64,000 nt of DNA, taken from the IMG/VR virus record IMGVR_UViG_3300042691_053605, positions 78,918 to 142,917 of that record; one strand, given 5' to 3'. Within the stretch, counting starts at the first letter, position 1. Every line of letters begins with the position of its first letter. The notes beneath the pieces were generated by a model. It saw nothing but the letters and a program-made list of their open reading frames with translations, ran no database searches and was not told the origin of the DNA. Of the stretch, positions 13,511 through 24,078 are shown in pieces. The position numbers were made by a program, and so were the translations under genes. The DNA is from a virus.

Positions 13511-13573
13511 TCTGCGGTTGTCTTTTTTTCTTTTTATATTATCCTTAACACAAATAAAGAGTGATCACTACGA

Positions 13574-13792
13574 TCACTCTATAACTATCTCGGGTCCACC
13601 GATGTACTCTACAATACCGCTTTTTGAAACGGATCTAATTTCATAATCAAAGGTGGTTCCTCTAAATTTTTCTCGTACTTTTGCCTGAGACTCTTCAATT
13701 GTCTCTGCATTTACAAGATAAGTTTCTGTAATGGTACGAACTTTACCATCATCATCGTAACTTGTTTTTACTCTTACTGTCCAGTGAGCCAT
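13574..13792 (-). CDS. DUF4494-like small protein (Bacteroidota type)
   Basis: W.V.VK.SY...G....TETYLVNAET.EE pattern. Confidence 0.65.
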   Translation of the reverse strand: MAHWTVRVKTSYDDDGKVRTITETYLVNAETIEESQAKVREKFRGTTFDYEIRSVSKSGIVEYIGGPEIVIE

Positions 13793-13822
13793 ATTATTGT
13801 GTTTTAAGGGTTGTCTGTTTAT

Positions 13823-14692
13823 TTATCCTTGCAAGAGATTGTTTTCAAAAATGATATTGCAAATTTCTCGTGATATCTGTGTATCGGAAGGATAATGAAT
13901 TCCGGTAACTTCTCGGCTGCGTGCTACTCTTTCTCCCAAATCTTTTAATTCCTTTTTAATCTTGGGATATTTTCTTGAGTAATACTCACTCATTACAAAT
14001 CCGGTTAGCGCATGACCGCTGGGATACGCCGCAGTCATTGCATCTGTTCTGATTAGCGGATAAAGAGGATAGTTGCAACATTTTGCTAATTGATAAGGCC
14101 TTGGGCGATTGATTATGTCTTTTAGAAAATAGAGAATTCCATCTGGCTGAGAGTCAATTCGGAAATACCCACCCATATCTTCCTCATAGCCGTTTTCTTT
14201 TAAGAGATCAATAAAAGACTGCGCTAAATTACTCACATCATCTACATATCTTGCAAAAGTTATCTCCTCAGCGGTGGCTTCTGCTGTAAGTTTAACCAGG
14301 GTTTCTAAATCCTTTTTTGTGGTTTCACTATCATTGGCAGGAGCGGTTGCACGCATTCTTTCGCAAATACCTTTTTCAATAAACCAGTTCTTAATCGGAT
14401 CGTCAGCCTTTTGTGAAATTTCAAAAAGTTCCATTGGAGGATTTCCGTATTGCACAGAATTAACATCGATACCCTCATCAGTAACTCCCATTTGAGCCTC
14501 ATAGAGATCGGTTTTCTTCTTCTTGCCTTTATCCGGCCCACCCTCATGCGGAATCATACCTTGTGCAATTAGAGAAGTTCTAACGCCAAACGGTATTTCC
14601 TTTCCGTCCTCGTATTCTTTTTTGTACTTTTGTAAAGTTTCATCTGAATACGGAGATTCTTTCTCTGTTATGAATTCTTTGTAGTTTTTCAT
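13823..14692 (-). CDS. PAP2-superfamily acid phosphatase
   Basis: K...RPRP, YPSGH and SR..GIHYPSD motifs; N-terminus MKNYKEFITE. Confidence 0.85.
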   Translation of the reverse strand: MKNYKEFITEKESPYSDETLQKYKKEYEDGKEIPFGVRTSLIAQGMIPHEGGPDKGKKKKTDLYEAQMGVTDEGIDVNSVQYGNPPMELFEISQKADDPIKNWFIEKGICERMRATAPANDSETTKKDLETLVKLTAEATAEEITFARYVDDVSNLAQSFIDLLKENGYEEDMGGYFRIDSQPDGILYFLKDIINRPRPYQLAKCCNYPLYPLIRTDAMTAAYPSGHALTGFVMSEYYSRKYPKIKKELKDLGERVARSREVTGIHYPSDTQISREICNIIFENNLLQG

Positions 14693-15534: not shown

Positions 15535-16143
15535 TTATCTTGGAGTAGTAATGTCCTTAGACTCTAGCAGAGTATATGTAAATGAGTTGCCCCACAGATT
15601 TTTTGCGGATCTGCAAATTTCCATAAAGGTGTAAAAGTCTTTTTTCCTCTTAAACACTTGGCAGCCTTCTGACCAGTTTTCTACATAGGTTGAATCTTCA
15701 CCAGCATGATGGATATTAATTCCAAACCCGGTTCCTTCGTCATATAAAGTGCCATCAAATACCATATCGCGGTCAGAATCCCGGTAAACTTTAAGAAGAC
15801 CTTTTTGACGCAGGGCTTCATAGTTTTTATGTGGACCTATCATATGAGAGCCAGGGTACTGACCCGGAATTAACCGGGCCACACCTTGACGATTTCCATA
15901 TTCCATGACACCTTTTTTCCCAGGATCTGTGGTAATAATCCACTCATGGTATTTCCACACTTCATTAATTTTGTACACAAGACACATTCTGTCGTCAAAC
16001 AAATTCGTTACCGCATTTCCTACATCACTATTCCGAACTCCTACTATATTAAGATTGTAATTTCCTTCGTCAAACCAACGGTAGCCTTTTGACTTTACCG
16101 TGGCCTCAATTTGCCCGTGTGTCCAATTCATTGAAGTTTCCAT
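15535..16143 (-). CDS. putative L,D-transpeptidase-like (YkuD-fold) cell-wall enzyme
   Basis: GINIHHAG...WSEGCQ catalytic His/Cys motif; abuts the endolysin gene. Confidence 0.65.
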   Translation of the reverse strand: METSMNWTHGQIEATVKSKGYRWFDEGNYNLNIVGVRNSDVGNAVTNLFDDRMCLVYKINEVWKYHEWIITTDPGKKGVMEYGNRQGVARLIPGQYPGSHMIGPHKNYEALRQKGLLKVYRDSDRDMVFDGTLYDEGTGFGINIHHAGEDSTYVENWSEGCQVFKRKKDFYTFMEICRSAKNLWGNSFTYTLLESKDITTPR

Positions 16144-16979
16144 TATTTTAGAAGCGCGTAATACTCTTTGAAATGCTTAATGCGGTCAGCCAATCCAATG
16201 GTTCCACCGTTAACTCTTTTAGTTACCGCTGTTACTGTTGCGTCATCCGCGCCTTTATCACAAATACTCCACAATTTGTTGGAATCAAAGAAAAAAGCAG
16301 CAGAAGCCAGCGCATATTTAGAAGCAACTAAATCAGGAGCGGCTACGCAGTCTTCTCCAATAAACTTAGTAAAGGCAGTATAGTTACTTTTACCAGTCAA
16401 TTGGATATATCCACGACCGCGGTAGTTCCAACCATCTTTGGAAGCCTCGTCTCCGTTACCCATACGGCTTGCGTATACTCGAGCGGCAATTTTTTCCGGT
16501 TGACGAGCATAAGAGGCGGAAAGATCTCCAGGAAAGTATTTTCCAAAAATCTTCTTTAGCCCATCTGCACTGTAATTAAGATTTTCAGCAACCGCCTTAA
16601 ATCCTCCACTTTCATGTCCACACTGGGCTAAGAAATGTGCAAGTCTAAGACTGTTAGTGATATTAAATTTTGCAGCAGTGTCAGGAATTTGAGCAAGTAC
16701 AGCGTCAGGAATATGTCCTTTTAATTTGTCTAACTTAAATCCGGAAGCTGATGGAGCAGCCGCAACTGGAGCCGCTGTTTCAGCAACATGAACTGCGCCA
16801 AGACCCATACGTTCCCATGTGGCGTTACCAACAATACCGTCAGCAGACAATCCGTGTTTTTCTTGCCATATCTTTACAGCAGCCTCGGTGCCAGGACCGA
16901 AAGCTCCATCATCAGCAAGTCCTAAAAATCTTTGAAGAGACTTTACCTCTTCGCCAGATGATCCTTTTTTCAATAACAT
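16143..16979 (-). CDS. endolysin: peptidoglycan-binding domain plus GH19 glycoside hydrolase
   Basis: LKKGSSGEEVKSLQ..DG.FGPGT PG-binding domain; FLAQCGHESGGF, YRGRGYIQLTG and TKRVNGG GH19 motifs. Confidence 0.92.
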   Translation of the reverse strand: MLLKKGSSGEEVKSLQRFLGLADDGAFGPGTEAAVKIWQEKHGLSADGIVGNATWERMGLGAVHVAETAAPVAAAPSASGFKLDKLKGHIPDAVLAQIPDTAAKFNITNSLRLAHFLAQCGHESGGFKAVAENLNYSADGLKKIFGKYFPGDLSASYARQPEKIAARVYASRMGNGDEASKDGWNYRGRGYIQLTGKSNYTAFTKFIGEDCVAAPDLVASKYALASAAFFFDSNKLWSICDKGADDATVTAVTKRVNGGTIGLADRIKHFKEYYALLK

Positions 16980-16994
16980 ATTTGATTGTTTATT

Positions 16995-17363
16995 TTAGCA
17001 TTCACAAGGTTCTTGACCACAATTAGGGCAAGTAGAATCAACAGAAACCACTTCAGCAGCCTCCTCCTTTTTTACCGGTGTGGTGGCCTGATTAATATCC
17101 TTTTTTGCAGCAGTAAACTTATCAACAGATGACAATCCAAGAGTTGCAAATGCCAATAGAGCAACTGCATCTACAAGGTATTGCGCAGGAGCAATATCTA
17201 CAGTTGAAAAACTGTTGTGATACATGGTAACGCAAAGTGTAGCAGCACACATAACGCCAACTAGTCTTTTTGATGATGGTACTCCTTTTTCATCTTTGAA
17301 AAGTCCGCCTGACCATTTTTTCAAGTCTTCAAACCATTTTTTGATGTTTTCAAATAGTTTCAT
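16995..17363 (-). CDS. putative holin
   Basis: SSKRLVG followed by two hydrophobic helices; immediately upstream of the endolysin. Confidence 0.6.
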   Translation of the reverse strand: MKLFENIKKWFEDLKKWSGGLFKDEKGVPSSKRLVGVMCAATLCVTMYHNSFSTVDIAPAQYLVDAVALLAFATLGLSSVDKFTAAKKDINQATTPVKKEEAAEVVSVDSTCPNCGQEPCEC

Positions 17364-17380
17364 TGTTTTGTTTTGTTATT

Positions 17381-17953
17381 TTATTCCTTCGTCTCACTGG
17401 CGTATTTAACACCCATTATCGTTCCCACTATTGAAAAAGCATTTGTAAGAAGTATTCCAAACATATTGCTCCAGGTACTTCCTATAATTTGTGTATCTTT
17501 ATCTGTAATCATAGCAACCGCGTACATTCCTGTGGTAATTACTCCCACGCTTCCAATTACAATCAGTGCAACTTTTACAATTAAACCCATAAGCTCAAAT
17601 TGCGATTTTTTCTGTGCAACTTCTAAATCATTTAAAGCTGCATCTTTTGCAGCTTCTGCTTTTTTCTTTGCATCTTCCGCATCTGATAACGCACTTTTGA
17701 GTTCTTCATTTATTCTAACAATCTCTTCTTCGGTTTCCTGTAGCTCACGATTTCTCTCTTGTACCTGTTTAGTAATTTCAAGTCTTCGTTTGCGTGTTTC
17801 CTTATCTTTATCTGTAGATTCTTTTATGTAGGTTGCAAATTCAGTATCGCCAGCATCCGCTTCCAACAACTTAAGAATATTGCCTTCCAGCGTTATTCTT
17901 TTTGTACGTTGTACCTCTAATAGCCAATCTCTTACTGTTTTATCAACTTTCAT
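17381..17953 (-). CDS. coiled-coil membrane protein with two C-terminal TM helices
   Basis: Charged helical N-terminus and hydrophobic C-terminus; start overlaps the receiver stop. Confidence 0.7.
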   Translation of the reverse strand: MKVDKTVRDWLLEVQRTKRITLEGNILKLLEADAGDTEFATYIKESTDKDKETRKRRLEITKQVQERNRELQETEEEIVRINEELKSALSDAEDAKKKAEAAKDAALNDLEVAQKKSQFELMGLIVKVALIVIGSVGVITTGMYAVAMITDKDTQIIGSTWSNMFGILLTNAFSIVGTIMGVKYASETKE

Positions 17954-18384
17954 TATTTGTATATCTTAAAGGGAGCAGACTTACTTTTGTAACTGTCAAA
18001 ATCTTTTTTGAAATCTTCTAAACGAGGCTCAATATCATCACTCTTAATAATCCAGAACTGTGCACCGGCTTTTTGCGCCTTTGTTTGCTCCTCGGGTTCA
18101 TTAGAAGAGGAAATAATGCCAATTACCACGCCATCTCCGTATTCAAAATTTATTTTACGGATAAGTTCAATGCCATCATAAGAAGATCCAATAATGTTTA
18201 GATCTACAAATACGCATTCGGGTTTTCCCGCAGAGTCTTGCTGCCATGCAGCAAATAAACGCGCTGCTTGATCCGCGCTATCAATACATTCCAACGTTAG
18301 AGAGATATCTAACAAACTGCATGCATCTTCAAAAACAAGATGGAAGAGGCTTTCATCGTCAACCAACAAGATTGATTCAATCAT
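17953..18384 (-). CDS. single-domain response regulator (CheY-like receiver)
   Basis: ILLVDDE, VFVDLNI..DGIEL, IISSS and GAQFWIIK; no output domain. Confidence 0.92.
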   Translation of the reverse strand: MIESILLVDDESLFHLVFEDACSLLDISLTLECIDSADQAARLFAAWQQDSAGKPECVFVDLNIIGSSYDGIELIRKINFEYGDGVVIGIISSSNEPEEQTKAQKAGAQFWIIKSDDIEPRLEDFKKDFDSYKSKSAPFKIYK

Positions 18385-19714
18385 TTTGTATGCTTATTTT
18401 CATTTTAGTGCCTTTTGGCAATTTTTCACAATCCAAGCGATAACCGTGTTCCACAAAAATTGCGTTTGTGATGTTAAGACCCAAACCTTCTCCGCCATCT
18501 ACCGCATTTTGAGTATCAATTTTATGCTCCAAAACTTTTTGAAACTCCTTTGGTGATAAGCCTCGTCCGTTATCCTCTACACATATAATGTTATCAGTTC
18601 TATATATCTTTACAGCCTTTTCTGCGCTGTCATTGTACTTTAATCCGTTACGTACTAAATTATCAATACCACTGCAAAAAAGTATCGGATTAACGTTTTC
18701 AGTGCCAAGATCTTCCACTGTTACCTGGGATCCATAAGATGTATTTGAAAAGTATTTCAGCAGTTCATCTTTTAGGTTTACTTCTTTTTTCTCAAGAACT
18801 ACATTTTCTTTTACCAGATTTGTAAATTCGTACACATTTTTATACACCTTTTGTGTATGCGCAAGCCCTTCTTTAATCATTTTTATTGCACCGTCAATCT
18901 TAAGCTCTTTCATTTTTTCTTCATCTACGCGCCTTTCCAGCGATGTTATTCCACGGGGCATATAGGTATTAATACCGCTGTGCATATCGTGACGTATTAA
19001 ACGCGCGGCATGGTCAAGATATGTGTTTTTCTTATTAATGTCTCTTATTTGTTCCTCGATCTCAACATCCTGTACCTGTATTTTTTTCCTTTGTAAAACC
19101 ACTGCGGTAACCAGACCAAGGGCAGTAATTATACCAAAAGCAATATAGAGATATCTCTTTAACTTATTTTGTTCTACCTTTAGTTCATCATTTTGGCCTA
19201 CCAGATTTCCGTTTTCATCTTTTAATTCACCTTCGGTTAACGTTAAATTAATGATGCTCTTTTCTTTTTCCAACACAGTCAAAGTTCCTTGTTTTGACTT
19301 AATAAGTTCCTGTTTTGCTCTCTCTTTAATTAACTTATCAATTTCCTGTTTTAATTGTGCAATCTTATTGTCAATTTGTATTAAGACAGTTTTCAAATTT
19401 TCTTTAGGCAGTTCCTCATAAGAAGGCGGAAGATCTGCCATAAATTTAACGTCCTCCTCTAAAAGTTTAACGTCCTCTTGCGTTAGTTCCTCTTTTGGCT
19501 CCTCAAAGATTTTTTCTGGCTTAACCCAGTTTGGGACAATTTTGTCAATCATATCCGTAATAATGTTTGACTCTAAAACGGTGTCCTTTTTTAACACATC
19601 AAGTTTCTTTTCCGGGTTTACCCAACTTGGATTAATTCTTACGTCATCCAGCGTATCTTGCGAAAACGCACCAATTGAAATGACAAATAATGGTATCAAT
19701 AATAATGTTTTCAT
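18377..19714 (-). CDS. membrane sensor histidine kinase
   Basis: Signal peptide, coiled coil, one TM, H-box IRHDMHSGIN, NLVRNGLKYN, EDNGRG and GLGL. Confidence 0.9.
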   Translation of the reverse strand: MKTLLLIPLFVISIGAFSQDTLDDVRINPSWVNPEKKLDVLKKDTVLESNIITDMIDKIVPNWVKPEKIFEEPKEELTQEDVKLLEEDVKFMADLPPSYEELPKENLKTVLIQIDNKIAQLKQEIDKLIKERAKQELIKSKQGTLTVLEKEKSIINLTLTEGELKDENGNLVGQNDELKVEQNKLKRYLYIAFGIITALGLVTAVVLQRKKIQVQDVEIEEQIRDINKKNTYLDHAARLIRHDMHSGINTYMPRGITSLERRVDEEKMKELKIDGAIKMIKEGLAHTQKVYKNVYEFTNLVKENVVLEKKEVNLKDELLKYFSNTSYGSQVTVEDLGTENVNPILFCSGIDNLVRNGLKYNDSAEKAVKIYRTDNIICVEDNGRGLSPKEFQKVLEHKIDTQNAVDGGEGLGLNITNAIFVEHGYRLDCEKLPKGTKMKISIQND

Positions 19715-20376
19715 TGTTTTGCCTCCTTATCAAGACGGTTCCATTTAGTACGGTATTTCCAAACTTTTCTTTTTGTGGATTCTTCGCTACCTAAACGTTG
19801 GATTTTTATTTTGCTTCTGAATTCAAACCAGGCGGCCTGATTGACGCCATAAGTTTCTACAAATTTCTTATATTTTTTATACTCTTTCTTTGACATTTTT
19901 TGAAGGGAATACCCAAAGTCATAATTTATTAAGTAGTACTCCGATAAATCCATTATGTATATAGTAGTGTCGTCGGGATACTGGGTATACACTAGTGAAG
20001 GGCCAAGCGCCCAGCTCCATAGGCTGTCCAGGACATACTGGTTTTTTGTTTCTCCGCTGCCATTTATTTTAGCTATTGAGTCTATTATGTTTTTTTGTAT
20101 TCCATTTAGCTGTTTTAGCACTCGGTTTTCTTCTAACAAAATTTGATTAATTTGACTTAGGCTATCAATAAAAAGTTTGTTTTTAGAATCTTTTTTCCGG
20201 TATTCCTTAGTCTCCGCAACTTTTTTATCAATCATTTGATTAATTTTTTCAGATTGCTCAATGGTTAATATGATAACCGAATCGCCTTTGAAGATTGTTT
20301 TGATAGGGTACTGGTTTTGTGATAAACCAACTACCACTGAAAAAAAGATTGCAGTGGTAAGCAGAAAATTTTTCAT
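19711..20376 (-). CDS. exported protein of unknown function, between the two kinases
   Basis: Signal peptide MKNFLLTTAIFFSVVVGLSQ followed by a coiled coil. Confidence 0.65.
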   Translation of the reverse strand: MKNFLLTTAIFFSVVVGLSQNQYPIKTIFKGDSVIILTIEQSEKINQMIDKKVAETKEYRKKDSKNKLFIDSLSQINQILLEENRVLKQLNGIQKNIIDSIAKINGSGETKNQYVLDSLWSWALGPSLVYTQYPDDTTIYIMDLSEYYLINYDFGYSLQKMSKKEYKKYKKFVETYGVNQAAWFEFRSKIKIQRLGSEESTKRKVWKYRTKWNRLDKEAKQ

Positions 20377-20377
20377 C

Positions 20378-21640
20378 TTAATGTAGACTTATTTTCATTT
20401 GTGTGCCACCTTGCGGCAGCTTATTGCAATCTACCGAAAAATTGTGTTCTTCTAAAATTGCAATACAGATGTTTAGGCCTAAACCGGTACCGGTTTCTTT
20501 TTGGCCTTCCTTTCGAGTATACGGCTGTGACAAGTGCTTAAAGTCTTCTTGACTCATTCCACGTCCATTATCTTCTATAAAAATATCATTGTCAATACGA
20601 TAAATCTTTACCTTTTTGCAATCGCTATCATTATACTTTAGTCCGTTTCTTATTAGGTTATCAACCGCGGTACAAAAAAGAGCTTCATTAACTTCGGAGG
20701 TTCCCAGATCTTCAATTTCAACTTGTGGACGATACGCGGTAGCAGAGAGATAGTCCTCTAAAATTTCTTTAAGATTGCAACTTTCTGTATTTAGCACCGC
20801 ATCTTTTTTGACAAGATTTGTAAATTCGTAAACGCCTTTGTAAACTTTTTGAGTATGACGAAGACCTTCTTTAATCATTTTTAGCGGAGCATCAATCTTT
20901 AATTCCTTTTGTTTATCTTCAGGCATTCTTCGCTCAAATGAGGAAAGGCCACGCGGCATATAGGTATTAATACCGCTGTGCATATCGTGACGAATAATTT
21001 TTGCGGCATGTTCTAAATAAGTGTTTTTCTTTTCAAGCTCCTTTGAAGATTTTACAATATCTGTAATGTCTTGCCGAATAGAGGAAAAGCCTTCAAGCTC
21101 TCCATTTCGATCAAATCGGGCACGAATGTAGGTATCTACATAATAAAGTTCTCCACTTTTTGTTCGGTTGGTTACTACGTCGTTCCAAATGCCACCAGCT
21201 AGTACAGTTTTATACATTTCTCCCCAATATCCATCTGGTTGAACTCCGGAATTTACGATACTGTGATCCTTTCCAATTACTTCTTCTAGTTTCCAACCTG
21301 ACACCTCTTCAAATTTCTTATTTACATAAGTAATTTTGCCGTATCGATCTGCAAGCGAAATAATTGAAGACGCATCAATAAAGCCGTCGGTGCCAGCAAT
21401 TCGCCTTTGCATATCATCAATATGTTCTTTTTGAATTTTCTTAATAGCGCCAATTGTACTTCTAACCAAATAGGTAAACAGCGGAATAAATGAAAGAAAG
21501 CAAATGTATTCAATACTTCGCGTAAGACTGGTTGATTCGCAAACCTCAATAAATACTAAGGTTTTTACTATTGAAAAGATTACGATATCTACACAAGTTA
21601 GTGCAAATATAGCTTTTGTTAAGAAGGAATAGATTTTCAC
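20378..21640 (-). CDS. PAS-domain sensor histidine kinase
   Basis: Two N-terminal TMs, PAS/PAC (ITYVNKKFEEVSGW..EEVIGKDH; NRTKSGELYYV), H-box IRHDMHSGIN, NLIRNGLKYN, EDNGRG and GTGLGL. Confidence 0.92.
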   Translation of the reverse strand: MKIYSFLTKAIFALTCVDIVIFSIVKTLVFIEVCESTSLTRSIEYICFLSFIPLFTYLVRSTIGAIKKIQKEHIDDMQRRIAGTDGFIDASSIISLADRYGKITYVNKKFEEVSGWKLEEVIGKDHSIVNSGVQPDGYWGEMYKTVLAGGIWNDVVTNRTKSGELYYVDTYIRARFDRNGELEGFSSIRQDITDIVKSSKELEKKNTYLEHAAKIIRHDMHSGINTYMPRGLSSFERRMPEDKQKELKIDAPLKMIKEGLRHTQKVYKGVYEFTNLVKKDAVLNTESCNLKEILEDYLSATAYRPQVEIEDLGTSEVNEALFCTAVDNLIRNGLKYNDSDCKKVKIYRIDNDIFIEDNGRGMSQEDFKHLSQPYTRKEGQKETGTGLGLNICIAILEEHNFSVDCNKLPQGGTQMKISLH

Positions 21641-22704
21641 AGCATGGATTTGACTTTTTGAACGTACTCGTCCACAAAAGCCCGGAGTTTATCCGCTGCG
21701 GCCTGGGCGGCTGGAGTCGTTATTTTATCCAATTTAGATGAGTTTGCAGCGGTATACATTTTATCAATATACCGGTTTCTAACCGCATCTAAAAGTTCCG
21801 CTCCTGATTTGTACTTAATGACCGTACCGAATTCACCTAATTGCTCAAGTGTATCTGCAACTGCGCGGATTCCATCGCATAAGTCTTCAAATCTTGGATT
21901 GGACGGATCAATACCTTTCCAGCTTTTTAATGACTGGGAAGGGTTAAACTCTTTTTCCGTACCCGACTCTTGCCAAAAGAACTTGGCAATATCCACCATA
22001 AATGTATTAATGTCTTTTGTTATTAACCGGTCTTCAACACCGGCTCTTTTACTGTATGAAACCATTTGAGTGCCCCCAAATTTAGCACGGATTCCGCGAG
22101 GCTGTATACTTATTTCCAGAACCTCTCCAAAAGACGAATAGAGGTTTCCAAGTACAAATCCTTTTACATTTCTGATTGGCGTCATTCTAAAAATTGCCCA
22201 GTCTTTATACCCAGTATGAGTAACCACCATGTCCACCTGAATCCAGCCATCGCCTTCTGGAGTGGCCACCTTCATAATCAGTTTTACCGATGACGGATCT
22301 GAAATTTTCCGTGATTCCTCAATGTCAATAAATGAATATGACTTCTTGGAAAGGAAGTCAAGTAACTCATTATTGTAAAGTTTTACTGTAGCAATTTCGT
22401 TGGATCTTTCATCCTTGCCAGTTAAATCAAGCGTAGGATAAGCAACCATAAAGTCTATGTCGCCATAGACTTTATCAGGCTGCGAAATAATATCGTCTTC
22501 ATACCAGGTTCCGCTTCCAATAGGTTTGGAAAAATCAAGTGGAGGCAGCTCAATGGTTTTACAGTGAGCTGCAAATTCGGAACCAATGATCTGAAGTTTT
22601 TTAACGCCGTCTGCTATAATTTTTGGCTTAATGAGAGTGGACTGGGTCTTTACAGATGCCCAGCCGCCCTCGGCTAACCAGTTTTCATACAGACGTACAT
22701 ACAT
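21637..22704 (-). CDS. putative Pol-beta-like nucleotidyltransferase with a capsid-targeting-like N-terminus
   Basis: IGSG...YGDIDF...QVD motif; MYVRLYENWLAE. Confidence 0.55.
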   Translation of the reverse strand: MYVRLYENWLAEGGWASVKTQSTLIKPKIIADGVKKLQIIGSEFAAHCKTIELPPLDFSKPIGSGTWYEDDIISQPDKVYGDIDFMVAYPTLDLTGKDERSNEIATVKLYNNELLDFLSKKSYSFIDIEESRKISDPSSVKLIMKVATPEGDGWIQVDMVVTHTGYKDWAIFRMTPIRNVKGFVLGNLYSSFGEVLEISIQPRGIRAKFGGTQMVSYSKRAGVEDRLITKDINTFMVDIAKFFWQESGTEKEFNPSQSLKSWKGIDPSNPRFEDLCDGIRAVADTLEQLGEFGTVIKYKSGAELLDAVRNRYIDKMYTAANSSKLDKITTPAAQAAADKLRAFVDEYVQKVKSML

Positions 22705-23294
22705 TATTGTTCGGTTGTTTCGTTACCAGGAAGAACTTGATCAACTACGTTTTCCTTTCCATAAACTGCCAAGTTAACTTGGTGAGTAATTGGAACATTA
22801 CGTAAAACTTCTGAACCAATCATATTGTTATAGCTAGGATAGGTTTGGAAATTTTCAGCAAGAAAACTTTCAAAATCTGCTACCGCATTGGCAGAAACAC
22901 CTTCTTTAATTTTGTAAGTTTTACCTTCAAATTCAAATTCAGTCTTTCCTTCCTCTTTTGCTTTTGCAACGGCACCAGAAAATTTGTTTCCTTCATCAAC
23001 CTCAGTGTCGTCTTCTACTTCAGCATTTACATCATCGGCGGCGTCAGAAGCAGGAGTTTCGGTATCATCACCTTTTGGATCTTCAGCAGGCTCTTCGTCA
23101 GGACGCTCTGTATTAGAAGGTTCTGTGCCTTTTGCATCCGGAGTTTCTTCAGGCTTTTCTGCTGTTGGAACTTCATCTTTTGGAGCTTCGGCATTGGCGG
23201 TAGTTTCCGCATCGCCTGTTTCAGGCTTTTTCTTAGGATCCGTATTAGGATTTTCATCCTGCAGGAACTCGTCAAATTTCTTTACGTGTTTCAT
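22704..23294 (-). CDS. acidic low-complexity protein, putative internal head protein
   Basis: MKHVKKFDEFLQDE; E/D/P/T-rich; late promoter upstream. Confidence 0.6.
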   Translation of the reverse strand: MKHVKKFDEFLQDENPNTDPKKKPETGDAETTANAEAPKDEVPTAEKPEETPDAKGTEPSNTERPDEEPAEDPKGDDTETPASDAADDVNAEVEDDTEVDEGNKFSGAVAKAKEEGKTEFEFEGKTYKIKEGVSANAVADFESFLAENFQTYPSYNNMIGSEVLRNVPITHQVNLAVYGKENVVDQVLPGNETTEQ

Positions 23295-23314: not shown

Positions 23315-23323
23315 CTATATATC
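23315..23323 (-). promoter_or_regulatory. putative late promoter GATATATAG
   Basis: Recurring motif; heads the gene run leading through the kinases to the lysis genes. Confidence 0.7.
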
Positions 23324-23329
23324 ACAGAA

Positions 23330-24025
23330 TTATTCTGATACTCCGTACGATTCTAGCAAAGAGTTGATTAGTGTTTCTATTTGTAGGTAGAGATTAAACT
23401 GTAAAGTGTTTTCCATTGTGACAGAAACGTCCTTCATAGGAATGACTGTGTTGTCACGAAATGAAATAAGTCTTTCAACCGTGCCATCAGTGTTTCTTAA
23501 TGTGGTAGGAAAGTTAGGGTCTGTAAAGGTATCAAAAGAAATATCCGGTGAATACTTTATGAATGACGAAAGAGTTTCAATATTAGGTATAATCTTTGTT
23601 TCTTCTTTTACAACTATTTCATCACGATTAACACTTAAATCATCAGAGTAGATTTTAACATCACTAAAGCTTGCAGGGACTGTCGCATCTATGAGTGCTG
23701 CGCTAATCTCCCCAACCCAAGAACCTACTGCATCCCAGTTATATGTTACTTCAGCAGATTTAAGCACCGGTAAAAAGAGATCCTTTACGCCGTATAACTG
23801 AACACTGGTAAGAAGAACTTCCTTGTCTAAGTCTTTTCCACTATAATCAATATTTACTGTAAAGGTTGATCCGTATCCACCAGATATAGTGGTAACATTT
23901 GCAATTTCACCGCTATAAGCAGTGCCATCTATTTTAACTGATGCAGTTCCTACGGTGGTTGGCTCATTAAATTCTATACCTTTTGAAGATGCGTATAGAG
24001 TAACGTTAATTTGTATTGCTGCCAT
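23330..24025 (-). CDS. hypothetical late (probably structural) protein
   Basis: Beta-rich; late promoter at 24040-24048. Confidence 0.55.
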   Translation of the reverse strand: MAAIQINVTLYASSKGIEFNEPTTVGTASVKIDGTAYSGEIANVTTISGGYGSTFTVNIDYSGKDLDKEVLLTSVQLYGVKDLFLPVLKSAEVTYNWDAVGSWVGEISAALIDATVPASFSDVKIYSDDLSVNRDEIVVKEETKIIPNIETLSSFIKYSPDISFDTFTDPNFPTTLRNTDGTVERLISFRDNTVIPMKDVSVTMENTLQFNLYLQIETLINSLLESYGVSE

Positions 24026-24050
24026 GCTTATTGGTTTTACTATATATCAC

Positions 24051-24078
24051 AAAAAAAGCCAGACCGTAGTCTGGCTTT
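24051..24078 (-). terminator. intrinsic terminator
   Basis: AAAGCCAGAC-cgta-GTCTGGCTTT with a U-tract on the minus strand. Confidence 0.8.

Follow-up and report, generated by a model that had tools for sequence, protein, structure and literature searches.

The window, 64,000 nt of a 142,917-bp IMG/VR contig, contains a run of eight minus-strand genes between 21640 and 15535, which encode in this order the membrane-anchored histidine kinase HK1, the putatively exported protein EXP, the second kinase HK2, the stand-alone receiver RR, the coiled-coil two-transmembrane protein ccTM, the small holin-like protein HOL, a GH19 endolysin (LYS) and a YkuD-fold enzyme (Table 1). All eight open reading frames were verified at their coordinates; neighbours either overlap by 1-8 nt or stand 1-17 nt apart, in agreement with the initial annotation of overlapping or abutting genes with no obvious terminator. 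The signalling pathway looks intact, judging from kinase and receiver domains that score above the Pfam cut-offs and from the retention of catalytic and acceptor residues. With a CheckV completeness of ~50% for the record, the earlier description of the system as "complete" is true of the pathway, but not of the genome. The DNA comes from an uncultured T4-like jumbo phage, of which the record represents a fragment and whose host probably belongs to the Bacteroidota.

Between 24055 and 13580, no strong minus-strand terminator was found; the only strong hairpins are those at the two ends of this interval, which are likely the upstream limit and the end of the transcription unit. A promoter-like motif, (G)ATATATAG, was counted 20 times across the 143-kb record; 16 of the 20 copies are followed by a same-strand start at a distance of 13-49 nt. 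Upstream regions show a 50-58-fold enrichment of GATATATAG, and one of the genes it leads encodes a head maturation protease, which suggests a late-type promoter. The late motif previously noted at 23315 is real (copy at 23322), and a further copy at 18607, absent from the earlier list, might serve as an internal promoter that drives RR, ccTM and the lysis genes, although it may be due to chance because it is one of only four copies outside the 13-49 nt range. Genes are tightly packed throughout the genome, with 144 of 151 called genes on one strand.

Table 1. Genes and putative regulatory features of the locus (window coordinates).
Feature	Position	Strand	Description or basis
Terminator-like hairpin, strong	24055..24078	-	closes preceding gene; 10-bp stem, 5 GC pairs, then TTTTTG
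Promoter-like motif GATATATAG	24040..24047	-	22 nt before start of gene 23330-24025
Promoter-like motif GATATATAG, second copy	23315..23322	-	28 nt before gene 22704-23294
355-aa gene, no family	21637..22704	-	stop overlaps HK1 start; next to the module in 0/43 related loci
HK1, membrane-anchored histidine kinase	20378..21640	-	2-TM hairpin ~9-62, PAS 91-194, H-box, HATPase_c
EXP, 221 aa	19711..20376	-	signal-like N-terminus (sequence reading)
HK2, paralogous kinase	18377..19714	-	HATPase_c 1.5e-12
GATATATAG, third copy	18600..18607	-	inside HK2, 223 nt before RR start
RR, stand-alone receiver, 143 aa	17953..18384	-	Response_reg 34.6 bits (cut-off 30.2)
ccTM, coiled-coil 2-TM protein	17381..17953	-	start overlaps RR stop
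HOL, 122 aa, no family	16995..17363	-	two hydrophobic segments, charged C-terminal tail (sequence reading)
LYS, endolysin	16143..16979	-	PG_binding_1 + Glyco_hydro_19 (Pfam, PHROGs)
LDT-like, YkuD-fold enzyme	15535..16143	-	AF2 model; H145...S-x-G-C161 motif
Terminator-like hairpin, strong	13558..13580	-	next one downstream; hairpin scan

Signalling proteins and lysis genes

The kinases possess a DHp histidine and a GHKL ATP-binding domain with N, G1 and G2 boxes (read from the sequence as H-box IIRHDMHSGIN, N-box NLIRNGLKYN, G1 EDNGRG, G2 GxGLGLN), and their HATPase_c domains reach 56.1 and 48.3 bits (cut-off 26.4). Pfam HisKA did not match either of them, and the DHp domain therefore appears atypical, resembling the HisKA_3 "HD" type. 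HK1 displays two hydrophobic segments at its N-terminus on reading of the sequence, PAS (2e-7) and HATPase_c (6e-15) matches that both exceed the Pfam cut-offs, and an H-box (IIRHDMH) in which H218 is likely the phospho-accepting histidine. HK2 shares 59% identity with HK1 over 231 aa of the transmitter half (DHp and CA) and is read as beginning with a signal-like segment, followed by ~170 aa of periplasmic coiled coil and one transmembrane segment at ~189-208. EXP had no family match; it was detected by tblastn only in loci that also bear an HK2-type kinase, several HK2-type loci being devoid of it, and it may act together with HK2 in the periplasm.

The PAS domain of HK1 is similar to solved FAD-PAS domains of the redox sensors MmoS (3EWK, 4.7e-26), Aer (8DIK, 3.5e-15) and NifL (2GJ3, 1.4e-9). 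H126, W152, N158 and R189 of HK1 align with H53, W79, N85 and R115 of Aer, respectively, and S91 occupies the position of Aer T18. In Aer, H53, N85 and R115 are residues of the flavin pocket (PMC9668731). The W/N/R set is kept in about 75 of 135 PAS domains of related kinases. Similarity and pocket residues together point to a FAD-type redox sensor of the Aer/MmoS/NifL type with predicted flavin binding, through which the main conserved kinase (HK1 type) probably senses the intracellular redox state. The extracellular cues envisaged in the initial annotation are thus not what this kinase appears to read.

RR shows the acidic pocket, phospho-Asp, Ser/Thr and Lys of a receiver, with D9, D10, D61, S92-94 and K114 invariant in 32 homologues, and Pfam and family searches found no output domain beyond the receiver. 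The original reading of a receiver that retains its phospho-Asp, Ser and Lys and lacks a DNA-binding domain is therefore upheld. Mean column identity is 85% over 32 phages, and conservation across the 501 IMG/VR loci with RR matches indicates strong purifying selection. Homologues with 62-72% identity are present in Bacteroidota contigs, and this closeness to cellular proteins makes cross-talk with host proteins possible.

ccTM consists of an N-domain (residues 1 to ~70) followed by a signalling helix, or coiled coil, whose length varies, and by TM1 and TM2. Its AF2 model (pLDDT 85) comprises one long helix, 37-149, into TM1 and TM2 at 155-188, and both ends are predicted to be cytoplasmic. 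TM2 is near-invariant and polar-faced (WSNMFGILLTNAFSIVGTIMGVKY), with the small-residue/polar motif S174-x-x-G177-x-x-x-G181. The sole family match of ccTM was phrog_4730, which has no function attached, and searches of Pfam, PHROGs and NCBIfam gave no holin family for either ccTM or HOL. ccTM is a new, virus-only family. It is also larger than most holins, which speaks against a holin reading.

HOL abuts the endolysin gene in the window, and its family was found by local jackhmmer in 35 fetched loci, also beside the PAS- and GAF-fused ccTM variants described below; as far as can be read from its sequence, it could be a conventional holin or an antiholin. LYS was assigned to the GH19 endolysins by matches to PF00182 (36.7 bits, cut-off 25.5), PF01471 (49.6 bits) and phrog_181 (endolysin, 6e-71), and reading of its sequence gave no obvious SAR signal. 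The LDT-like protein did not match Pfam, the YkuD model included. Its AF2 model (pLDDT 86), however, retrieved only YkuD-fold structures in the top 20 rows of VIA-align (Z 8.9-5.8; next row Z 3.1), led by Pgp2 (Z 8.9, rmsd 3.8, 125 aligned), YkuD 5BMQ (8.8), Csd6 (8.6) and Bd1075 (8.5). H145 and S158-E-G-C161 are invariant, and PHROGs returned phrog_3000 as well as a weak match to the endolysin phrog_33083. This YkuD-fold enzyme is probably a second peptidoglycan hydrolase.

Linkage of the module to lysins in related phages

In related IMG/VR phage contigs, which represent one related phage group and whose genomes are not independent samples, kinase, RR and ccTM form a near-invariant module. 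Of 85 unique loci, 84 have RR and ccTM side by side, and in nearly all the RR stop overlaps the ccTM start or is only a few nt away from it; an HK1-type kinase adjoins RR in 75 of 78 testable loci. The three unique loci without an adjacent kinase are L126 and L129, with no kinase match within the fetched flank, and L032, where a gap of ~730 nt intervenes.

In 34 of 43 unique loci, RR-ccTM has a lysin of the GH19 or YkuD type no more than 5 kb away; a recognised lysin is absent from this range in 7-9 of the 43, and the nine other flanking genes of the window are kept in 0-1 of them. The link between the module and the lysins is specific in that lysins stay near while other neighbours change. 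At least seven arrangements of lysin and module were found, including divergent ones, with varying order and strand; in many loci the GH19 gene follows ccTM immediately. GH19 is single-copy in each near-complete relative and lies 0.7-2 kb from RR in four of five, these four (290-430 kb) each having a single RR. Lysins of other families can occupy the same place, in two loci beyond these 34: in L100 an unrelated phrog_7 endolysin directly follows ccTM, and in L109 a 153-aa ORF in this position is a candidate for a different endolysin. The module thus sits beside lysis genes in most relatives, as the hypothesis of the initial annotation required, and so do ccTM variants devoid of kinase and RR, whose neighbouring lysins belong to three families. 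Of the gene order it had put forward (kinase, kinase, receiver, membrane protein, holin, lysin), the kinase-RR-ccTM part is kept, but not the exact order, since HK2 with EXP and the small holin-like gene occur in a minority of loci only.

The sensor-swapped variants carry other domains in place of the N-domain: GAF-cc-2TM in L141, next to a faint GH19 match and a Glucosaminidase; PAS-PAS-cc-2TM in L142, next to a PG_binding_1+GH19 gene; and PAS-cc-2TM in L148, next to a Peptidase_M15_3 gene. Kinase and RR are absent beside all three, which indicates that the 2-TM hairpin is the regulated output even then. Conversely, N-domains fused to HisKA and HATPase or to FecCD occur in proteins encoded directly after an RR with 61-72% identity to that of the phage, one such context being a Bacteroidota chromosome; the N-domain kinase P0146 has no adjoining RR. 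The proposed action of RR on its coupled membrane protein is supported by this recurrence of the N-domain after the same RR and by the start/stop coupling. We read the locus as a signalling pathway that was captured from Bacteroidota and wired to phage lysis genes.

A phosphorelay model and its alternatives

ccTM is placed where a holin normally sits, beside a cell-wall-degrading enzyme, and we propose that it is an RR-gated holin-like effector. Building on the observed gene content, domain identities, conserved linkage and domain swaps, we lean somewhat towards a phosphorelay that gates this effector, for which we infer phosphotransfer, binding of RR to the N-domain, a membrane activity and the direction of the effect. 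HK1 would be held in the inner membrane by its hairpin, with the cytoplasmic FAD-type PAS domain reading redox, and HK2 would combine the transmitter of HK1 with a periplasmic sensor, ahead of which the presumably exported EXP is encoded. Both kinases would phosphorylate the single stand-alone RR, which would be made in step with ccTM and could dock on its cytoplasmic N-domain. A long helix would join this domain to the almost invariant polar-faced hairpin, and binding of phosphorylated RR would alter the packing or oligomerisation of the hairpin, which might either make a lethal membrane lesion itself or restrain the adjoining small holin-like protein. In this way the respiratory or redox state of the host, together with envelope signals, would govern the release of the GH19 endolysin and the YkuD-fold hydrolase. 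Other phages may exert the same control within one protein, in which PAS or GAF is fused directly to the hairpin. The locus suggests that the phage times lysis by reading the redox or envelope state of its host. In this form the lysis-timing switch of the initial annotation is partly supported, by the lysin linkage and the RR-ccTM coupling, but not with respect to the exact gene order or the extracellular cue.

TM2 of ccTM is far more conserved than is usual in holins, which could mean a fixed host target or a channel, and the conventional-looking small holin candidate next door implies that ccTM need not form the hole. The module might accordingly control another membrane function, such as superinfection exclusion, a membrane potential or channel activity in host takeover, or envelope remodelling, with lysins adjoining it because envelope-directed genes cluster. 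A near-invariant polar-faced TM2 does suit a typical, fast-evolving holin less well than a channel or a fixed partner, and the missing holin family match of ccTM, the separate holin-like gene and the loci without a recognised lysin nearby point the same way. We nevertheless consider this unlikely, as the lysin linkage outlasts many rearrangements in which all other neighbours change, as well as replacement of the sensor and of the lysin family, and in many loci the endolysin gene comes right after ccTM.

That RR mimics a host regulator appears quite unlikely. It would then be phosphorylated by phage or host kinases and act mainly on host partners, for example in an N-domain kinase cascade, so as to reprogramme host signalling, with ccTM as a membrane tether or phosphate sink. 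Such a role would suit the identity of RR to Bacteroidota chromosomal receivers partnered with an N-domain HisKA kinase, its conservation well above that of its neighbours, and the two kinase-less loci L126 and L129, but it sits poorly with the constant, translationally coupled company of ccTM and with the PAS- and GAF-fused variants, in which the hairpin is regulated in the absence of RR. Very improbable, finally, is that the adjacency has no meaning and the two-component genes are a host-captured moron co-inherited with the lysis genes by descent. Shared ancestry of the loci, whose counts are not independent, and the tight packing of the genome would allow for it; purifying selection on RR, the retained proximity of lysins despite varying order and strand and the loss of other neighbours, and the repeated lysin association of independent domain architectures all argue against it.

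Comparison with known systems

The phosphorelay model resembles T4 lysis inhibition (holin T; antiholins RI and RIII) and that of ICP1 and N4 in that lysis time would be adjusted to a signal via proteins acting on a holin. Of the T4 regulators, RI exerts its effect from the periplasm and RIII from the cytoplasm, and the phage studied here is likewise T4-like. The T-type holin PF11031, however, matched neither the record of the window nor five relatives that are 91-100% complete, and no sequence relationship to the T4, ICP1 and N4 lysis-inhibition systems was found. Those depend on superinfection-triggered direct antiholin binding, whereas a His-Asp phosphorelay with sensor kinases is proposed here.

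In bacteria, LytSR and CidR control the holin- and antiholin-like LrgAB and CidAB. The likeness lies in a two-component system tied to holin-like membrane proteins and murein hydrolase activity. LytSR, however, is cellular rather than viral; LytR is a LytTR DNA-binding transcriptional regulator, whereas RR (143 aa, receiver only) has no LytTR output and is coupled to a membrane protein, and LytS senses by a 5TM-Lyt domain as opposed to the FAD-type PAS of HK1. RR is closer to CheY, as in CheY-FliM, being a stand-alone receiver with all phospho-acceptor residues that is expected to bind a partner. It differs in that this partner would be the new N-domain, found on a 2-TM hairpin, HisKA kinases and a FecCD permease, and in that there is no chemotaxis context.

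Class II or pinholin-type holins such as S21 68 have two TMDs in an N-in/C-in topology. ccTM shares with them the two TM helices, the predicted cytoplasmic location of both ends, the small-residue/polar motifs in TM2 and, in many relatives, a gene position directly upstream of the endolysin. It differs by its cytoplasmic N-terminal signalling part of 120-150 aa, the extreme conservation of TM2 and the lack of a family match. HK1, finally, is anchored in the membrane by a hairpin and keeps the pocket residues, as does Aer; unlike in Aer, MmoS and NifL, its output is a histidine kinase in a phage, and the domain order of hairpin, PAS and DHp-CA departs from that of Aer.

Gene chain and transcription signals

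ORF and domain analysis recovered the run of minus-strand genes exactly as the initial annotation had described it, leading from a PAS histidine kinase (HK1) through an exported protein (EXP), a second kinase (HK2), a 143-aa stand-alone receiver (RR), a coiled-coil protein with two transmembrane (TM) segments (ccTM) and a small holin-like protein (HOL) to a GH19 endolysin (LYS) and a YkuD-fold enzyme. Neighboring genes of the chain overlap by 1-8 nt or are separated by gaps of 1-17 nt, and only two strong terminator-like hairpins were found on the minus strand (see table). Further genes of the same terminator-free run lie downstream, among them those for a DUF4494 fragment and a soluble protein of the PAP2 family (1.4e-8); relatives keep neither beside the kinase-RR-ccTM module.

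Features of the signaling and lysis region, in window positions
Feature	Position	Strand	Content
Terminator-like hairpin	24078-24055	-	strong
Promoter-like motif copy	24040-24047	-	17 further copies in record besides the three listed
Promoter-like motif copy	23315-23322	-	
HK1	20378-21640	-	PAS + HATPase_c
HK2	18377-19714	-	HATPase_c
Promoter-like motif copy	18600-18607	-	inside HK2
RR	17953-18384	-	receiver only
ccTM	17381-17953	-	coiled coil, 2 TM
HOL	16995-17363	-	2 TM, holin-like
LYS	16143-16979	-	PG_binding_1 + GH19; phrog_181 endolysin, 6e-71
YkuD-fold enzyme	15535-16143	-	AF2 model pLDDT 86; no Pfam match
PAP2-family protein and DUF4494 fragment	13574-14692	-	
Terminator-like hairpin	13580-13558	-	strong

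The promoter motif proposed in the initial annotation is real. The 143-kb record contains 20 copies of (G)ATATATAG, which is enriched 50-58-fold in upstream regions; 16 of the 20 sit 13-49 nt before a start on the same strand. It is probably the late promoter of the source phage, analogous to TATAAATA of T4, and a late-type reading fits the head maturation protease, one of the genes led by the motif. The copy within HK2 was unexpected and may be an internal promoter from which RR, ccTM and the lysis genes are transcribed. The motif GATATATAG showed no consistent presence upstream of the module in relatives, scans for sigma-70-type and Bacteroidota-type (TTTG...TAnnTTTG) promoters gave no enrichment, and plain TATAAATA and GATAAATA occurred at chance-level frequency. 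Among sequencing runs, no RNA run was listed as covering the region.

Source phage and conservation of the module in relatives

The window represents the right-hand 64 kb of one 142,917-bp IMG/VR virus record with a CheckV completeness of about 50%, and 144 of 151 genes (simple greedy ORF call) lie on the minus strand. Because relatives of 91-100% completeness measure 290-430 kb and neighbor genes in related contigs match T4-type PHROGs (among them Srd anti-sigma factor, endonuclease VII, UvsX-like recombinase), we assign the source to the T4-like jumbo phages, and it is known from metagenomes only. Among GenBank phages (INPHARED), nothing closely related to HK1 or RR was found, and the GH19 part alone was matched, distantly, in Flavobacterium phages and others. 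A third HATPase_c match lies outside the window (G000:C1:8204-8512) within a 606-aa ORF whose product may be not a kinase but an ATPase of the topoisomerase or GHKL type.

In IMG/VR, 65 loci carry a relative of HK1 and 501 a relative of RR at 73-88% identity. We fetched 137 loci, 85 of them unique, and analyzed them by local tblastn and ORF analysis. The gene order proposed in the initial annotation held for its core: the kinase gene immediately precedes RR in 75 of the 78 loci that could be tested and ccTM follows RR directly in 84 of 85, the RR stop and the ccTM start overlapping or lying within a few nucleotides in nearly all loci. The order in full did not hold, since HK2 with EXP, as well as the small holin-like gene, occur in a minority of loci only. 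RR and ccTM are non-adjacent solely in L135, where a 255-aa gene of no known family is inserted between them (L135:10429-11196). Three loci (L124, L126, L129) have RR and ccTM without an upstream kinase and with a divergent GH19 gene directly upstream; their kinase may be encoded elsewhere in the genome or be supplied by the host.

The linkage to lysins was followed in the 43 unique loci that extend 5 kb or more to each side. Of these, 34 have a lysin of the GH19 or YkuD type within 5 kb, in at least seven arrangements including directly after ccTM, upstream and divergent, and upstream on the same strand; nine other flanking genes of the window were each kept in 0 or 1 of the 43 loci. Ten neighbor ORFs from twelve apparently lysin-less loci were scanned singly and one was an endolysin, a 152-aa protein of a different family (phrog_7, 3e-58) that overlaps the end of ccTM in L100. 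In L109, a 153-aa ORF takes the same position, and in a bulk scan of these loci two proteins matched phrog_7. Of five near-complete relatives, four (genomes of about 300-430 kb) carry a single RR and a single GH19 gene 0.7-2 kb apart, the fifth having no GH19 gene, and a T4 T-type holin was found in none of the five.

Domain architecture of the ccTM family

The ccTM family is virus-only. Its members consist of an N-terminal domain (N-domain) with the conserved motif LEGN...KRLxITKQVQxQNxEL, a coiled coil of variable length, a variable TM1 and an almost invariant TM2, the latter displaying a polar face (W161, N163, T170, N171, S174, G177, T178, G181). In the AF2 model, one unbroken helix runs from the cytoplasm into TM1 and is followed by a hairpin. 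In fold searches with this model, BFVD yielded its own family alone, and the PDB matches were helical hairpins or coiled coils of a generic kind, with Foldseek E values of 5 or worse and VIA Z scores of at most 9.6, below the meaningful level for long helices. Matches in the ESM Atlas were confined to virus-only clusters of this family, auto-named 'GLE1-like' (uninformative), and the match to GLE1 itself was below the cut-off and was disregarded; PADLOC gave coiled-coil noise only. A DNA-binding (HTH) reading of the N-domain, based solely on one structural row of the Atlas (TM 0.28), was rejected because PDB support is absent and the same domain occurs on kinases and a permease.

A profile search against 1.84 billion representatives yielded 273 clusters and revealed modular domain swaps at both ends of the protein. 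In sensor-swapped forms the hairpin is joined to GAF-cc (P0017), PAS-PAS-cc (P0048) or PAS-cc (P0053, P0037), and in their contigs neither a kinase nor an RR lies beside them. These forms adjoin a faint GH19 match and a Glucosaminidase in L141 and PG_binding_1 plus GH19 in L142, while in the PAS-cc-2TM locus L148 the start of a Peptidase_M15_3 gene overlaps the ccTM stop. Homologues of the small holin-like protein adjoin them in L141, L148 and L149.

In output-swapped forms the N-domain is instead fused to HisKA and HATPase_c (P0122, P0132, P0137, P0146) or to a FecCD permease (P0080). Four contexts were examined, and in all but that of P0146 the gene is immediately preceded by an overlapping or abutting gene for the same 143-aa RR (61-72% identity). 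One context, L153, belongs to a genuine chromosome of a Bacteroidota member, on which Por_Secre_tail, CHU_C and CreD are also encoded. A multi-PAS kinase and an RR (62% identity) likewise occur amid ordinary cellular genes on a Bacteroidetes MAG contig of 967 kb. In cellular and unplaced contigs (L153:5709-9090, L143, L146, L161) a Bacteroidota signaling cascade takes the order multi-PAS kinase, 143-aa receiver and then either the N-domain kinase or the N-domain permease. The N-domain looks like an undescribed portable receiver-recognition module. According to the simplest reading of these architectures, it would be the docking or input domain for RR with the 2-TM hairpin as the regulated output, and the phage pathway would have been captured from the host phylum.

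Sensory input and proposed lysis control

HK1 and HK2 share 59% identity across the 231-aa transmitter, whereas their sensor halves are wholly different. The PAS domain of HK1 matches MmoS PAS-A (3EWK, 4.7e-26), Aer (8DIK, 3.5e-15) and NifL (2GJ3, 1.4e-9), all three FAD-binding redox sensors. Its residues H126, N158 and R189 align with H53, N85 and R115 of Aer, which the paper on the Aer structure lists as residues of the flavin pocket that MmoS also has (PMC9668731). The W/N/R set is kept in about 75 of 135 PAS domains of related kinases, consistent with MmoS-like tandem PAS arrangements. The two TM segments of HK1 are joined by a short loop, and we therefore regard it as a cytoplasmic sensor anchored in the membrane. 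In HK2, a signal-like N-terminus and a single TM segment accompany a region of about 170 residues that lies outside the membrane. This kinase may add a periplasmic input because of its extracytoplasmic region and because all loci with detectable EXP homologues also have a kinase of the HK2 type, although several loci with such a kinase are without EXP. A weak match of EXP to Abi_alpha was below the cut-off and was discarded. The length of the kinase encoded before RR ranges from 420 to about 718 aa (about 717 aa in L077 and L090; about 590 aa in L100, L104, L109 and L118), depending on whether it has one, two or three PAS domains; its sensor end evolves fast while transmitter and RR stay fixed.

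In the mechanism that we posit, the kinases would transfer phosphate to RR, phosphorylated RR would bind the N-domain of ccTM, and the signal would pass along the ccTM helix to the hairpin, whose action in the membrane would trigger or delay the release of the endolysin. ccTM would either act as the holin or regulate the small holin-like protein. Holins classically respond to the collapse of the membrane potential, so coupling a lysis effector to a respiratory or redox sensor would be a coherent design.

The kinase/receiver pathway looks intact and is tightly coupled to ccTM, and we are rather confident that RR signals to this protein; that RR instead mimics a host regulator, with ccTM as its tether, seems quite improbable. 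ccTM is linked specifically to endolysins of three families, and this association survives rearrangement; an adjacency inherited without meaning can hardly be the explanation. On balance, we lean slightly towards lysis control as the function of the module. The main observation not well explained by a holin is the extreme conservation of TM2 and RR, and a membrane function other than lysis is an unlikely, if somewhat stronger, competitor than a tether.

A more far-reaching version of lysis control is possible rather than probable: ccTM may found a family of sensor-gated holins, in which a conserved 2-TM lesion module is driven via a signaling helix. The one-component driver would be a directly fused PAS or GAF sensor, and the two-component driver a docking domain for the phosphorylated receiver, fed by the FAD-PAS and periplasmic kinases of the phage. 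Under this version, giant Bacteroidota phages would time lysis by the respiratory state of the host, with the first phage lysis clock under phosphorelay control, and the N-domain would be a new portable receiver-recognition module that cellular kinases and transporters also use.

Lysis timing is a central phage life-history trait, and signal-responsive timing is already known. Its known adjustment to conditions, the lysis inhibition of T4, ICP1 and N4, rests on antiholins without a phosphorelay, unlike the putative phosphorelay described here. Bacterial LytSR-LrgAB differs in mechanism, acting transcriptionally through a LytTR regulator, and CheY-type receivers act via protein contact but with other partners than the phage RR. 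Full-text literature searches retrieved no description of phage lysis control by a histidine-aspartate phosphorelay, of a phage two-component system tied to lysis, or of PAS or GAF sensors joined to a holin-like protein; ccTM and the N-domain are new protein families. If lysis control is correct, widespread environmental jumbo phages, as represented by the 501 RR loci, would have direct sensors for envelope cues and for the redox or energy state of the host, and their decision to lyse would follow from these signals at the post-translational level. It would also add a new membrane effector family, a new receiver-docking domain that Bacteroidota signaling proteins share, and a compact lysis module, gated by a ligand or by phosphorylation, that is easily tested and a possible tool.

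The last enzyme of the chain could contribute to lysis as well. Its AF2 model matched YkuD-fold chains only (top 20 rows, Z 8.9-5.8; next row, Z 3.1), and H145 and S-x-G-C161 are invariant. A DpaA-like enzyme, cutting outer-membrane lipoprotein tethers, could serve as a spanin stand-in. The Z scores are tied between hydrolytic members (Pgp2, Csd6, Bd1075, DpaA) and L,D-transpeptidases, and Foldseek ranked DpaA first and Pgp2 third.
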